Of a stretch of DNA of 23,492 bases, positions 1,414-8,901 are shown one piece after another. A program made the position numbers and the translations under genes. This stretch comes from Escherichia coli (GTDB lineage Bacteria; Pseudomonadota; Gammaproteobacteria; Enterobacterales; Enterobacteriaceae). The stretch lies in the NCBI RefSeq assembly GCF_003334765.1, contig NZ_QOWT01000046.1; one strand, given 5' to 3'. The notes beneath the pieces were generated by a model that worked only from the letters and a program-made list of their open reading frames with translations, did no database searches and was not told the origin of the DNA. The first letter of the stretch is position 1, and the number at the start of each line of letters is the position of its first letter.

Positions 1414-1471
1414 AAAAAGGGCGGCAGAGCAGTCACGGAGTAAAACTGATACCGCCAAACGTCACCAGAAA
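1414..1471 (-). ncRNA. dicF: DicF small regulatory RNA (53-nt core 1419-1471 plus U-tract)
   Basis: Reverse complement of 1419-1471 reads TTTCTGGTGACGTTTGGCGGTATCAGTTTTACTCCGTGACTGCTCTGCCGCCC, which matches DicF as I recall it, followed by TTTTT; located just upstream of dicB. Confidence 0.85.
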
Positions 1472-3291: not shown

Positions 3292-3391
3292 AGGTAAATA
3301 ATAGATGCGATTACCGCAAGGTAAACAACCTGTGGGTATTGACTTTTGTTTACCTGTGGGTATTCTTTGCTGTGTTTACTAAGGAGTAGCT
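3292..3391. promoter_or_regulatory. Divergent promoter/operator region (right-operator-like)
   Basis: Direct repeats CCTGTGGGTAT (x2); TTGACT, 16-nt spacer, TATTCT promoter-like elements facing the Cro-like gene; AAGGAG SD before the ATG at 3392. Confidence 0.55.
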
Positions 3392-3673
3392 ATGGAAGAA
3401 TTAAGAATATTTCTCAATTCTCTTTCGTCAGATGAACAGCGTATGTTTGCATGCGAGTGTGGTACCAGCATCGGTTATCTAAGAAAGGCATTGAGTAAAG
3501 GTCAAGTGTTAGGGGCATCGTTATGTGTCCTTATTGAGCGAGCCAGTAATGGTGAAGTTACACGTCAGCAACTAAGGCCTTTTGATTGGATGAATATTTG
3601 GCCCGAGCTGGAAGATACCAAAACGTTAACACAACCACTTTCTAGGAGCTTGATTCATGAAAATCAAGCATGA
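3392..3673 (+). CDS. Cro/YdaS-like HTH regulator (93 aa)
   Basis: Strong AAGGAG SD; first gene of the rightward operon; segment GYLRKALSKGQVLGASLCVLIERASNGEVTRQQLRP resembles the YdaS family by recollection. Confidence 0.7.
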   Translation: MEELRIFLNSLSSDEQRMFACECGTSIGYLRKALSKGQVLGASLCVLIERASNGEVTRQQLRPFDWMNIWPELEDTKTLTQPLSRSLIHENQA

Positions 3674-4082
3674 ACACATCCGCATGGCGATGAATGTCTG
3701 GGCGCATCCGGACGGCGAAAAAGTGCCGGCTGCGAAAATTACCAAAGCGTATTTCGAGCTGGGAATGACGTTCCCGGAACTGTATGACGACAGCCATCCG
3801 GAAGCCCTGGCCCGTAATACCCAGAAAATTTTCCGTTGGCTGGATAAAGACACCCCTGATGCTGTTGAAAAAATGCAGGCTCTGTTACCGGCGATCGAAA
3901 AGGCGATGCCGCCTTTGCTGGTGGCCCGTATGCGCAGCCACAGTTCTGAATATTACCGTGAGATCGTCGAACGGAGGGATCGGCTGGTGAAGGATGTCGA
4001 TGATTTTGTTGCGTCAGCGGTTGTTTTGTATGACCAGATGAATCGCGGCGGCCCGGCAGGGAATGCTGTGGTGATGCACTAA
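3657..4082 (+). CDS. YdaT-like protein (141 aa; family annotated as putative toxin or cII-like regulator)
   Basis: AGGAG SD; overlaps the Cro-like gene by 17 nt; size and position match Rac YdaT downstream of YdaS. Confidence 0.65.
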   Translation: MKIKHEHIRMAMNVWAHPDGEKVPAAKITKAYFELGMTFPELYDDSHPEALARNTQKIFRWLDKDTPDAVEKMQALLPAIEKAMPPLLVARMRSHSSEYYREIVERRDRLVKDVDDFVASAVVLYDQMNRGGPAGNAVVMH

Positions 4083-4089
4083 AAGCACG

Positions 4090-5067
4090 GTGTTCGGGGG
4101 TTTTATGAGCAGCAAGCTTCATGGTCTTGTCTGGGAAGGGTGCGCCTTCACCGGCATGATCTTATCCAGGGTGGCGGTTATGGCCCGTCTTGCAGACTAC
4201 AGCAATGACGAGGGCGTGTCATGGCCTGCCATTGAAACTATCCGGCGTCAGATCGGTGCAAGAAGTGAATCCACAGTGAAATCGGCTATTGCAGAACTGG
4301 CGAAAGAGGGCTGGCTGACGAAGGAAGAGCGTAAGGTCGGTGGGCGTAATGTAAGCAATATCTATCGGCTTAATGTGGAAAAACTCGAAGCAGCTGCGGC
4401 GGCGGCGCGTGAGTCATATAAACCGAAAAGAAAAATTAGCCCGGCAAAAAATGACCCGTTAACAGTTGACCCGTCAAATATTGCCCCCTCAACGGTTGAC
4501 CCGTCAAATTTTGATGGATCAACTGTTGATAAAAAACTGCCGATTAGGGGGCCGATGATTGACCCCGATCCGTCAGTATTAAAACCTGATCCGTCAGATA
4601 AAAGATCTTCTTGTCCGGACGCTTCGCAACCGGACCCGCAGACGGCTGAACAGGATTTTTTAACCCGACACCCTGACGCGGTTGTGTTCAGTGCGAAAAA
4701 ACGCCAGTGGGGAAGTCAGGAAGATTTGGTGTGCGCACAGTGGATCTGGGGACGAATCGTGAGTCTTTACGAGCAGGCGGCCAGCTATGATGGCGAGATC
4801 ACTAGACCGAAAGAACCCAACTGGACAGCATGGGCCAATGACGTTCGCACAATGCGGATGCTGGATGGCAGAACTCACAGACAAATTTGTGAAATGTTTG
4901 GGCGTCTCCAGCGGGATTCGTTCTGGGTAAAAAACATCATGAGTCCGGCAAAACTCCGGGAAAAATGGGATGAACTGGTTATCCGCCTGGGGCGTTCGCC
5001 TGCGCAGCGTTGCGTGAATCACATTTCTGAACCGGACACTGAAATTCCGCCGGGCTTCAGGGGGTAA
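4090..5067 (+). CDS. Replication initiator (O-like, N-terminal winged-helix; start GTG 4090 or ATG 4105)
   Basis: N-terminal LSRVAVMARLADYSNDEGVSWPAIETIRRQIGARSESTVKSAIAELAKEGWL is typical of phage replication initiators; a Pro/Asp-rich repetitive linker is encoded by iteron-like DNA repeats. Confidence 0.7.
   Translation: MFGGFMSSKLHGLVWEGCAFTGMILSRVAVMARLADYSNDEGVSWPAIETIRRQIGARSESTVKSAIAELAKEGWLTKEERKVGGRNVSNIYRLNVEKLEAAAAAARESYKPKRKISPAKNDPLTVDPSNIAPSTVDPSNFDGSTVDKKLPIRGPMIDPDPSVLKPDPSDKRSSCPDASQPDPQTAEQDFLTRHPDAVVFSAKKRQWGSQEDLVCAQWIWGRIVSLYEQAASYDGEITRPKEPNWTAWANDVRTMRMLDGRTHRQICEMFGRLQRDSFWVKNIMSPAKLREKWDELVIRLGRSPAQRCVNHISEPDTEIPPGFRG
4450..4600. repeat. Iteron-like repeats inside the replication gene (candidate ori)
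   Basis: GTTGACCCGTCAAAT at 4465-4479 and 4495-4509 (30-bp spacing); related TGACCCGTTAAC at about 4452; palindromic TCAACTGTTGA at about 4520; TGATCCGTCAG x2 at about 4566 and 4586. Confidence 0.55.
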
Positions 5068-5211
5068 GTGTTAATTTCTGGTCATGAGGTAATTTTCAGG
5101 AGGGCTTGTGGCAAAAGTTTTTACACAAGAAGAGCGGGAAAAAATTAAAGGGCAGGTTGTTGAACTCGTACGCCAGAGTGGGCGCGAGACGTTACGACAA
5201 CTGGAAACTAA

Positions 5212-6407
<1,196 letters not shown>

Positions 6408-6861
6408 CTAATACTGGGGCAACAAGATATCTGATGAGCGTTCTGGCCAGAGAGCTGGTTGCCAGTGGCGATGTATACAACTCTGGTTACGGGTTATTCC
6501 CGTCTGAACAGGCGCGTAAGGACTGGCAAAATGCCCGTAAAAAGCTCTCAAGGGCAAAGCTGAAGAAACCATCTGCGGTTGATCCGGACCTTATCTGGTC
6601 ATTACCTGACGGAGAAATACGTCGCTACGACAGGCGTCAGAACATAATCTGTCGCGAGTGCCGGAAGAGTGAAGTTATGCAGCGCATATTGTCGTTTTAT
6701 CAGGGTGATGTTCGGTATTTATTGAAGTGACGAGATTAAAGTGCATTAGTTCAGATGCAAATTGACATTTTGTGGCACAGGGTAGAGCTAGCGTGGTTGT
6801 CCGCTTTGTGCCAATAGCGGACATTGCTGGCTCATGGTATGTTAGTTTAAGGAGGCAGGTT

Positions 6862-7884
6862 ATGCCCTGTATTTCGCTGTGGTATAATAGTTGCGCAATT
6901 GATACAAGGGAGCGTTACATCGTGAAAATTGTTTTCGAGGTTAATGGAAAGAAAGTTCCACTAAAATCTTTAAAATACATAAGCAAAAAAGATCAACTCG
7001 AAGTAATGAAAAACTGGTTCTTTGAAAACTTTGAAGATCCGGCAAATGCTTGTCCGTATGAAAGTAGAGAAGGTGGCTATGCTTACATATATGGCGGGCC
7101 GTATGATGCGAGCGAAGAACTACAATCCATCTTCGGTCAATATGTTAAATCTGAGTATATTGAGGAATTAGTAGATGAATTACAAACACAATGTTTTGAC
7201 TGGTCTGGAAACTCAAATAATATAGATGATTGGTACGATGATGATATCTACGACGCTGTAACGTCTTCCGGTAATCCGTATTTAAAATTCATTGATAATA
7301 TCGATAAAATAAAAAAACTTGCAAAAGATAAAACTGAACAACAGCAAAAAAACCACTTGCTTAGTTTGCTCTACACGAATGTTATTACAGCTTTGGAAAC
7401 GCTTTATGTTGAGCTATTCATTAATTCTATAGAGAAAGATGATGTCTACATAGCCAATTGTATAGAAAAAGGTAAGACTGAATTTAAAGTAAGCAAAGAT
7501 ATTGCTGCGTTGCCTTTCAAGGGTGAACCCATCGAGAAAATTAGGGGAGAGCTAATCAGGTCAATCAAGGAACACTTGATCAGTGCAAGCTGGCATAGCA
7601 CTAAAAAGGTAATCGACCGCTATGAAGCTACATTCGATATAAAAGTACAAAAAGACTGTCCGATAGAAGCTATTGAATTGGCAACCCTCAATCGAAATCA
7701 CTTAGTGCATCGTGGTGGAAAGGATAAAGAAGGGAACCTCGTAGTGATTACAGACCAGGATCTTGAAACGCTGATTGAAAATGCATCGAACCTGGCAATT
7801 ATGCTCTACAACAGTTTAAATGTAGCAACGAATAAAACCACCATTTTGCAACCAGATGACAAACCGTTCATTCATGAATTTTAA
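6862..7884 (+). CDS. Hypothetical cargo protein with a C-terminal HEPN-like R-x4-H motif (start ATG 6862, or GTG 6922)
   Basis: Visibly AT-rich; GGAGG SD 6 nt before ATG 6862; an extended -10 TGGTATAAT at 6879-6887 suggests the GTG 6922 start instead; RNHLVH at nt 7693-7710 within a helical C-terminal region. Confidence 0.6.
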   Translation: MPCISLWYNSCAIDTRERYIVKIVFEVNGKKVPLKSLKYISKKDQLEVMKNWFFENFEDPANACPYESREGGYAYIYGGPYDASEELQSIFGQYVKSEYIEELVDELQTQCFDWSGNSNNIDDWYDDDIYDAVTSSGNPYLKFIDNIDKIKKLAKDKTEQQQKNHLLSLLYTNVITALETLYVELFINSIEKDDVYIANCIEKGKTEFKVSKDIAALPFKGEPIEKIRGELIRSIKEHLISASWHSTKKVIDRYEATFDIKVQKDCPIEAIELATLNRNHLVHRGGKDKEGNLVVITDQDLETLIENASNLAIMLYNSLNVATNKTTILQPDDKPFIHEF

Positions 7885-7899
7885 TAGCGCAGGTCATAC

Positions 7900-8901
7900 A
7901 TGGATATTCGCACACGAAAGACAAAATTTTTAGAGTCGTTAGATTCAACTGAAGTGATACGCAAAGCAGTAAGTCTCGCTATAGATTGCATTATTGATAA
8001 TCATAATAGTAATGAAGATACCCCCTTAGTTATTACCAGCTATGATGATCTCTGTAGAATCCAGGTGCTAAATTATGTACAGGAGTTTTGCGAAGCTGCA
8101 TTCCCTGATATGGATGAATATTACTTTAGTCCTAACATACTTCGCATCAACGGCAAGACTAGTGAAGAAGCTTGTATTAACTTAATTAAACTCTTAAGAA
8201 GTACAAAAGGCATGCTATTCTGGTCCGATGCCCCATCGTGGTTCGCTAGCCTCCCCGACGGATTATTCCATGTTGTTAACATTGATCAAAAAATCGTTAC
8301 TCGCGGCCTTAATAAGAAAAACTCTAAGCCGACAATAATCAATAAAGATTACAGTGTAGATACACTACTATCAGAGCTATTTTTGAATGGCGCACACATG
8401 GAGCAACCCAACGTACACAACGTTTCTGAGGGAAACATGAAGTTCTATGATGAATGCCATGCTGGATTAATCAGACCAATACCCGCTCCAATAGGCGCGT
8501 CATACGATGAAGAGATCACAATTAATTCTCCAGATTGGCAAAAGCTCGCGTGTGTAGCTTTACGCCGCTATCAGTCGAAGGAATGTCATGACGGAATGCA
8601 ATGGGATACAACCGATCATGGTTGGACTGATGTAATCGCGTATCCATTCGTCGAAGAAATACAATCAATGGATAATAGTGGTTATCGACAATGTTTAGTT
8701 GGGCTGGTCACAATAAACAATTCAAATGCAAATTCTCCGTACCTATCTACCGTTTGGATACATCTATTTTATCGCAGGAGAGGGTTATTAAGTAAGTTAT
8801 GGCCAAAATTACAAGAGTTATATGGAAGTAACTTCGAAATTGAGCGACCTAATGAAAATATGAAAGCATTTCTGAAAAGTGCGAAACACGCAGATTACTA
8901 A
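7900..8901 (+). CDS. Hypothetical cargo protein (333 aa), partner of the preceding gene
   Basis: Same strand, 15-bp gap, same AT-rich composition; C-terminal LSTVWIHLFYRRRGLLSKLWPKL loosely resembles a GNAT-type beta-strand/R-x-x-G motif (weak). Confidence 0.6.
   Translation: MDIRTRKTKFLESLDSTEVIRKAVSLAIDCIIDNHNSNEDTPLVITSYDDLCRIQVLNYVQEFCEAAFPDMDEYYFSPNILRINGKTSEEACINLIKLLRSTKGMLFWSDAPSWFASLPDGLFHVVNIDQKIVTRGLNKKNSKPTIINKDYSVDTLLSELFLNGAHMEQPNVHNVSEGNMKFYDECHAGLIRPIPAPIGASYDEEITINSPDWQKLACVALRRYQSKECHDGMQWDTTDHGWTDVIAYPFVEEIQSMDNSGYRQCLVGLVTINNSNANSPYLSTVWIHLFYRRRGLLSKLWPKLQELYGSNFEIERPNENMKAFLKSAKHADY

Follow-up and report, generated by a model that had tools for sequence, protein, structure and literature searches.

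Replication origins that lie inside the gene of their own initiator have been established experimentally for lambda, the Shiga-toxin (Stx) phages and P22 (PMC8022706, PMC7466680, PMC6022878). In lambda O, iterons and an AT-rich region are located between the DNA-binding and the P-binding domain (PMC6022878; PMC8022706), and a modular layout, with a specificity module and a separate C-terminal domain, has long been described for this protein (PMC6022878). Initiators that are related only distantly each recognize the iterons within their own gene (PMC8022706), and silent iteron mutations abolish plasmid replication (PMC7466680). Here we analyze a 23,492-nucleotide stretch of Escherichia coli DNA (contig NZ_QOWT01000046.1 of assembly GCF_003334765.1; hereafter the window), which is part of a lambdoid prophage. 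Its O-like replication initiator gene (4105-5067, plus strand, 320 amino acids, from the open reading frame (ORF) and its translation) encodes a winged helix, a disordered linker and a helical C-terminal domain, and carries two arrays of short repeats. On comparative sequence evidence, we read positions 4450-4612 as the probable lambda-type replication origin of the prophage, embedded in its own initiator gene, and we put the probability of this reading at about 0.75.

Like ori-lambda and the six-iteron origins of the Stx phages 933W and P27, the candidate origin lies in the segment that encodes the initiator's flexible linker, and in-frame gains and losses of repeat units are tolerated, as in ori-lambda (PMC6022878, PMC7466680). 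Further features shared with ori-lambda are several dyad-symmetric repeats and the place of the gene in the early right operon, behind cro and cII; to the right of the repeats, where lambda has an easily melted segment, the window has a candidate for one. The repeats themselves are unrelated: lambda iterons are 18-19 bp long and of the ATCCCTCAAAACGAGGGA type, whereas those of the window have a 12-bp TTGAC-N3-TCAA core and a strict 15-bp period. Also unlike lambda, the window has a much weaker AT-rich element, no P gene next to the initiator gene, and an initiator without a Phage_rep_O match and with a DnaT-like C-terminal tail. The 'P27' studied in PMC7466680 carries iterons of the lambda type and says nothing about the initiator family of the window.

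The gene 18 products of P22 and phage L are distantly related initiators, each with its own in-gene repeat family (PMC8022706), and they follow the same specificity-cassette principle that we describe below between phages SI8 or Min27 and S107. Their repeats differ from ours in sequence and length (phage L has an 11-bp TGTCCAACGGA six times), and a DnaB-type helicase is encoded next door there, while none is encoded in the window. Plasmid iteron origins (P1 oriR, F, R6K, pSC101) resemble the locus in having tandem direct repeats read, here presumably, by a winged-helix initiator. Theirs are intergenic, measure ~19-22 bp and are usually accompanied by DnaA boxes, whereas the window has coding repeats with a 15-bp period and no conserved DnaA box. 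P1 and oriC have GATC-containing repeats in the melting region, and the second array of the window has such repeats in its candidate melting segment.

The initiator gene contains two repeat arrays

Array 1 (4450-4539, plus strand) comprises six tandem 15-bp units, candidate iterons with the core TTGAC-CCG-TCAA, which in frame encode NDPLT/VDPSN/IAPST/VDPSN/FDGST/VDKKL. Unit 1 (4450-4464) is weak (TGACCCGTTA), units 2 (4465-4479) and 4 (4495-4509) are perfect, and unit 5 (4510-4524) is in inverted orientation. Unit 3 (4480-4494) is degenerate and reads TTGCC, where the copies in the ST131 strain EC958, in BR1220 and in A31 read TTGAC. We had considered the underlying A-to-C change at 4484 as a private mutation that kills this iteron, and rejected the idea since TTGCC recurs in PEC422 and several viral contigs and is a common variant. 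Unit 6 (4525-4539) is a half-unit that runs into an A6 tract, read directly at 4531-4536 (plus strand), which closes the array and corresponds to the invariant columns A127-A132 of alignment A1; most relatives have an A-run (KK codons) at this position. The TGA and TCA columns are likewise invariant in alignment A1.

A preliminary description of this DNA had reported a 15-mer occurring twice at 30-bp spacing, and the exact 15-mer GTTGACCCGTCAAAT does occur at 4465-4479 and 4495-4509, 30 bp apart. The repeats reported there are present but were under-described, as the region is 15-bp-periodic with 5-6 units rather than two copies. Tandem Repeats Finder returned both a period-15 array (5 copies, 4440-4514) and a period-30 array (3 copies, 4440-4529). 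The palindromic units listed in that description are also found, TCAACTGTTGA at 4519-4529 and its sister TCAACGGTTGA at 4489-4499, and are mere junctions of neighboring 15-bp units.

Array 2 (4559-4597, plus strand) consists of TTGACCCC fused to GATCCGTCAG (4567-4576), followed by a second GATCCGTCAG (4588-4597). The first GATCCGTCAG copy follows array 1 after ~27 bp; the two copies are 21 bp apart, and both contain GATC. This is the second repeat family of the earlier account, in which the number of copies was right and the shared sequence too long: the exact common core is the 10-mer GATCCGTCAG only, the preceding T being present at the second copy alone, while the first reads CGATCCGTCAG. 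As that account had stated, all repeats fall within the initiator reading frame (ORF 4105-5067); the stretch that they encode is rich in Pro, Asp and Ser. Both arrays are contained in codons 112-177, the predicted linker between the DNA-binding and C-terminal domains.

The repeats are constrained at the DNA level

The motif TGAYCCGTCA (at most one mismatch) has seven matches in the 23.5 kb of the window, six of which lie within 4452-4596, with one on the minus strand. The looser pattern TGA-N4-TCA matches 16 times, four of them within 151 bp (Poisson P = 1.4e-6), compared with 0.51 per kb in the rest of the window. We then held the peptide of codons 112-170 fixed and redrew its codons from the codon usage of the window. 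Across 5000 redraws, the motif matched 0.9 times on average against 6 observed and TGA-N4-TCA 0.29 times against 4 observed, and no redraw (0/5000) reached the observed number in either case.

Because slippage could explain identity within the array, the decisive evidence must be comparative. Relatives were identified by tblastn with the N-terminal domain (N-domain). This domain is 49-67% identical in Klebsiella phage Kp4866-6, Shigella phages SfIV and SfII, Escherichia phages Flotzy and 733R5, Yersinia phage YeP2, phiP27 and Stx2_KH16-043, and 36-42% identical in a Vibrio phage, Salmonella phages SI8 and S107, and Min27. All closer relatives have an array with a 15-nt period just after the winged-helix domain, with the family unit consensus TCTGACsCGTCAAAA, and 2-3 copies of GATCC(G/A)(T/C)CA downstream. 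The latter stand at the same place in all relatives read, whatever the type of C-terminal domain, and their GATCC core is conserved in most.

The N-domain is near saturation at synonymous sites, with the same codon used in ~30-45% of amino-acid-identical columns in most pairs. Of the 33 repeat units with Ser at the corresponding place, 29 use TCA, a codon that makes up 14% of Ser codons elsewhere in the same genes; this count was made before a one-codon register error in one locus (L002) was corrected, and the correction brings in four further TCA. GA is preceded by T in 35 of 42 units, though the codon concerned encodes at least 8 different amino acids, and the central codon of the units may stand for P, A, G, T, C or E. 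Scanning viral contigs yielded 80 additional loci, and the density of TGA-N4-TCA was then measured on 71 distinct complete genes. It amounts to 21.4 per kb in nucleotides 301-520 and to 0.35 per kb elsewhere in the gene, a 61-fold difference, and every one of the 71 genes has 2-8 copies in nucleotides 301-520.

The motif is also found in both orientations and in different reading frames. Thus TTGACCCCTCAA reads V-D-P-S, while its reverse complement TTGAGGGGTCAA reads V-E-G-S. In phiP27 and Stx2_KH16-043, the 19-nt sequence TTTGACCCTTCAGAWTCTG occurs twice, 32 nt apart and in different frames, encoding FDPSDS and LTLQNL (1912-1930 and 1944-1962 in phiP27, L006; 1927-1945 and 1959-1977 in L007), and the Vibrio phage has GGTCAAAWTMCG in frames 1, 0 and 1. 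The distant homologs (36-42% identity) have unrelated dyad-symmetric repeats at the same position, encoding unrelated peptides (GGAGAA, STPPVPPE): GGGGCAGGAGCTGCCC is present three times in Min27 and once in SI8, S107 has AGCACCCCTGTGCCGCC and GCACACCCCCTGTGC, and the Vibrio phage has GGTCAAATTCCGACC. The repeats are both dyad-symmetric and specific to the initiator type, with 5-6 TTGAC-N3-TCAA units in the window and different repeats accompanying a divergent domain. An account at the level of the peptide would not accommodate the two orientations, the different frames, the unrelated dyad repeats of the distant homologs or the S107/SI8 cassette described next, and the constraint on the repeats acts on the DNA, not on the peptide.

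The repeats are inherited together with the DNA-binding domain

Identity between the initiator genes of S107 (L012) and SI8 (L011) is 81% upstream and 87% downstream of a segment at gene nucleotides ~141-385, and drops to 51-59% across it. The segment consists of precisely the recognition helix, wing and repeats. The confinement of the divergence to these parts suggests that the specificity determinants and their presumed sites travel as one cassette, and the difference between the two genes looks like a natural swap of an origin-specificity cassette. A finer correspondence appears in three IMG/VR contigs (L070, L071 and L073), which have GGRD in the wing (codon ~82) in place of an otherwise nearly invariant Asn (GGRN). 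These are also the only contigs in which several units read CCA instead of TCA (TTGACCCCCCAA, gene nucleotides ~355-420). This may be a case of protein-DNA covariation, but it is no more than a lead, as the three are close relatives and probably represent one event.

Arrays gain and lose whole 15-bp units, and linker length shifts in 5-codon steps among relatives; arrays of the window type have 4 to 6 units (proteins of 310, 315 and 320 amino acids), and those of the 733R5 type 4 to 7. At least three unrelated C-terminal domains are found, in different phages, behind the module formed by the N-domain and the repeats. As the breakpoint falls downstream of array 2, both arrays belong with the N-terminal specificity module.

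Domain architecture of the initiator

The initiator matches PHROG 391 ('replication initiation O-like', E = 4.3e-115) over its full length, residues 1-320 aligning with profile positions 1-298. A Pfam scan returned HTH_36 (3.8e-6, residues 25-71) and weak matches to DnaD_N, PaaX and Sigma70_r4_2. An AlphaFold model built from a 13-sequence alignment shows a winged-helix DNA-binding domain (residues 1-104; 4105-4416, plus strand), the presumed iteron reader, with helices and a beta-hairpin wing at a predicted local distance difference test score (pLDDT) of 75-90. It is followed by the Pro/Asp/Ser-rich linker (codons 112-177; 4438-4635, plus strand), which carries all the repeats and is predicted to be disordered (pLDDT <50, no secondary structure), and by a helical C-terminal domain (residues 178-295 in the model; 4636-5064, plus strand) that is DnaD-like or replisome-organiser-like. 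For the latter, PHROG matches to 'DnaD-like helicase loader' and 'replisome organizer' cover residues 196-302. We also looked for a specific initiator relative by fold, and abandoned this line: Foldseek gave only generic dimeric winged helix-turn-helix DNA-binding proteins (MarR, PadR and ArsR types), none with E <= 1e-3.

The protein ends in a 21-residue tail (residues 300-320; 5002-5064; ...AQRCVNHISEPDTEIPPGFRG) that aligns with the last 21 residues of E. coli DnaT (residues 159-179; positions 159-179 of the NCBIfam DnaT model), with 15 of 21 residues identical and E = 0.01-0.03. The IPxGFRG ending is found on two distinct types of C-terminal domain. Among the complete phages compared, SfIV and Flotzy have this tail (733R5 has the variant SGFRT) and no helicase or loader gene next door, and it is missing in phiP27, SI8 and S107, all of which encode their own helicase or loader. 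YeP2 has no such tail, and its neighboring genes include no recognizable helicase or loader; BR1220 is an exception, with the tail and a DnaC-like gene together. We presume that the C-terminal domain and its DnaT-like tail provide the link to the host helicase machinery; the function of the DnaT C-terminal tail is not addressed in the preprimosome paper PMC13377028. A bolder proposal, to which we give a low probability, is that a DnaT-like tail (...SEPDTEIPPGFRG) and origin recognition in one protein would plug the origin directly into the host primosome or into DnaB-DnaC loading, without a phage loader, and that the strict 15-bp (~1.4-turn) spacing of orientation-flippable iterons would imply a nucleoprotein geometry unlike that of the lambda O-some.

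A low-stability segment overlaps array 2

By nearest-neighbor energies, no 40-mer of the gene or its flanks is less stable than 4573-4612 (plus strand; -46.9 kcal/mol compared with a mean of -56.1 kcal/mol). This segment overlaps array 2 and is a candidate DNA-unwinding element. In the same ranking, its counterpart comes first in SfIV, Flotzy and 733R5, as it does in the window, second in YeP2 and phiP27, and fourth in Kp4866-6.

Proposed mechanism and alternative explanations

Repeats that are constrained as DNA and co-inherited with the DNA-binding domain of the protein they encode are what a self-bound origin predicts. The parallel to ori-lambda drawn in the preliminary description is supported on these two counts, and also by the O-like initiator, its lambda-like position and the placement of the repeats in the predicted linker. 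What we observe directly is that the repeats exist, where they lie, that they are conserved as DNA and that they are inherited together with the DNA-binding domain; from this we infer binding, melting, helicase recruitment and origin activity. The initiator would be translated from the early rightward operon, and its winged-helix domain would bind, probably as dimers, the dyad-symmetric TTGAC-N3-TCAA cores of the 5-6 contiguous units of array 1. The resulting multi-protein complex would stress the DNA and open the low-stability segment with the two GATC-containing repeats (array 2, 4567-4612). The DnaD/DnaT-like domain and tail would then bring in host DnaB, directly and together with host DnaC or else by way of a DnaC-like loader of the phage, which BR1220 encodes and the window does not. 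The DNA could serve two purposes because the disordered linker that it encodes is almost free to vary in sequence.

Several observations weigh against this interpretation. The Pfam scan of the initiator gave no match to the lambda O family (PF04492, Phage_rep_O). The candidate unwinding element is only ~65% A+T over 40 bp and far weaker than the 39-bp High-AT region of lambda. DnaA boxes, considered as an origin signal, were set aside: two weak near-matches flank array 1, at 4374 (minus strand, TTTTCCACA) and 4524 (minus strand, TTATCAACA), and are not conserved, as direct reading shows for the site at 4524 in SfIV. Enrichment of GATC (Dam) sites was likewise dismissed as a separate signal, with 4 observed and 4.55 expected from the Asp-Pro peptide. 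Half-sites ~8 bp apart with a unit spacing of 15 bp are unusual for a winged-helix dimer. Identity within the array can be inflated by recent slippage, and the covariation evidence rests on few independent events. The window copy itself may be inactive, given TTGCC in unit 3, the missing DnaC-like gene and an IS5 copy just downstream. Finally, a literature search of incomplete coverage found no paper on this iteron family or on the origin of this initiator family.

The origin could be of the proposed type and yet dead in the window, with a decaying prophage in which origin and initiator no longer fire; we regard this as possible, though it is not what we expect. The gene after the initiator is interrupted by IS5 (5212-6407), the window lacks the DnaC-like and DUF1627 genes of BR1220, and unit 3 has TTGCC instead of TTGAC. 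Against such decay, the initiator ORF is intact and one base from that of EC958, both the TTGCC allele and the absence of a loader are seen again in other genomes and in viral contigs, and several complete phages with the IPxGFRG tail motif also lack a loader gene beside the initiator.

Two further explanations would remove the origin function from the repeats altogether. They might bind the initiator or another protein for autoregulation, as a transcription roadblock or in partition-like handcuffing, while replication starts elsewhere. From DNA constraint and co-inheritance, nothing more follows than some function of the DNA that is tied to the winged-helix domain, and the candidate unwinding element is a weak one. 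We nevertheless consider this unlikely: in every lambdoid system studied, the origin consists of the in-gene iterons of the O-type initiator (PMC8022706, PMC7466680, PMC6022878), the window has no other repeat cluster that matches the motif, and a conserved low-stability segment adjoins the array. Alternatively, the repeats could be a functionless by-product of slippage in a low-complexity Ser/Asp/Pro-rich linker, their codon identity reflecting recent duplication. Array length does change in 5-codon steps, the region is predicted to be disordered, and identity within the array is expected after slippage, but the comparative data make this highly improbable. TGA and TCA persist at synonymous and non-synonymous sites alike, in lineages whose N-domain is near saturation at synonymous sites and while the encoded amino acids change, units flip orientation, the same motif appears in different frames in phiP27 and the Vibrio phage, and the unrelated peptides of the distant homologs (GGAGAA, STPPVPPE) always come from dyad-symmetric DNA repeats.

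Prophage setting

The initiator gene occupies the position expected of a lambdoid in-gene origin, behind a Cro-like and a CII-like gene of the early rightward operon, and the same order is found in EC958. The Cro-like regulator gene (3392-3673) matches a PHROG 'transcriptional repressor' family, and the CII-like gene (3657-4082) encodes a YdaT-like protein, classified as a CII-like activator in PHROGs; a promoter-like site (3339-3366) lies upstream of both. Positions 3300-5211 are 99.9% identical to the prophage of EC958 and to many other genomes. In EC958, the annotated order is a repressor-like gene, a 'transcriptional regulator', a 'toxin YdaT family protein', a 'helix-turn-helix domain-containing protein' and a DUF977 protein, and it is the gene with the helix-turn-helix annotation that is a single base apart from the initiator gene of the window.

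Just downstream of the initiator gene, an IS5 copy (5212-6407; transposase ORF 5280-6260; CTAA flanks at 5208-5211 and 6408-6411) is inserted in a DUF977/Ren-like gene, leaving pieces at 5109-5211 and 6408-6730; in EC958, this gene is intact. The BR1220 initiator gene differs from that of the window by 5 nucleotides. Between the initiator and DUF977 genes, BR1220 (L009, 5587-7125) has genes for a DnaC-like 'ATP-binding protein' and a DUF1627 protein, both of which are absent from the window (compare 5068-5108) and from EC958.

Distribution and significance

A 251-bp region is covered to at least 80% in 1,525 of 5,426 complete E. coli genomes; in its exact form it was found in no complete E. 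coli genome searched. The family includes the Shigella serotype-converting phages SfII and SfIV and the Shiga-toxin phages phiP27 and Stx2_KH16-043. The CPS-53 prophage of K-12 BW25113 (L016, 1424-2131) has a truncated initiator gene beside yfdN that keeps an SfIV-type repeat array.

Two plasmid records were considered as natural proof of autonomous replication, and both were too weak to use. One, pZ1322PEC0161-2 (L017, 15,977 bp, circular), contains only early-right and lysis genes of a prophage, including a DnaC-like gene, and its N-domain is 100% identical; it could be a lambda-dv-like circle. Its initiator gene has compensating homopolymer frameshifts, and the assembly is doubtful. The other, OR902858 (L018), is a 15-kb e14-like circular record with a shortened related gene at 3701-4252, and looks like an excised e14-like circle.

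An origin inside a lambdoid initiator gene follows a textbook principle, and the locus is not a new kind of system. What is added is a sequence-level definition of the origin module of a widespread initiator family, for which we found none described in the literature searched. The definition covers the core motif, the unit length, the orientation rule, the second repeat group and the cassette boundaries. It opens to testing mini-replicons, synonymous recoding, replication-specificity typing of prophages and host helicase recruitment.

Other features of the window

The preliminary description had mentioned that a TTGACnGTTG core recurs near 14360 and 14828 and had suspected coincidence, which proved correct. 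In the window, TTGACNGTTG has no matches besides the two sequences concerned, TTGACTGTTG (14360) and TTGACAGTTG (14828). Each lies 14 nt upstream of an Rfam STnc100 copy (14374-14564 and 14842-15051) and has no TCA half-site, and neither was called as a sigma-70 promoter in the promoter scan. We rejected a link to the repeats, as the exact TTGACnGTTG pattern does not occur in the repeat region (4450-4597) and the sites stand just upstream of the STnc100 copies. The surrounding region (14049-15051) holds three tRNA genes (14049-14295) and then the two tandem STnc100 copies, each ending in a terminator-like hairpin. It is a duplicated late-region module, in which the STnc100 copies lie downstream of an antiterminator gene, a DNA-methyltransferase gene and the three tRNA genes.

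Between the Ren-like gene and hok/sok lie two adjacent ORFs (6772-7884, 370 amino acids; 7900-8901, 333 amino acids). Neither has a PADLOC or NCBIfam match, the first having a weak Pfam match to HEPN_RES_NTD1 (3e-4), and the pair may be an unknown two-gene moron or defense candidate. Beside the terminase genes, two convergent genes overlap slightly (19597-20217, plus strand; 20159-21226, minus strand). One belongs to the sce7726 family (NCBIfam 2e-54; PADLOC 'cll') and the other is 'beta'/PD-Lambda-2_C-like (PADLOC 4e-32), which makes them a candidate anti-phage defense pair. Rfam matches include DicF RNA (1419-1470, minus strand), sok antitoxin RNA beside hokD (9350-9524, plus strand) and IS009 RNA (23273-23471, plus strand), which are ordinary components of Qin/Rac-like prophages.

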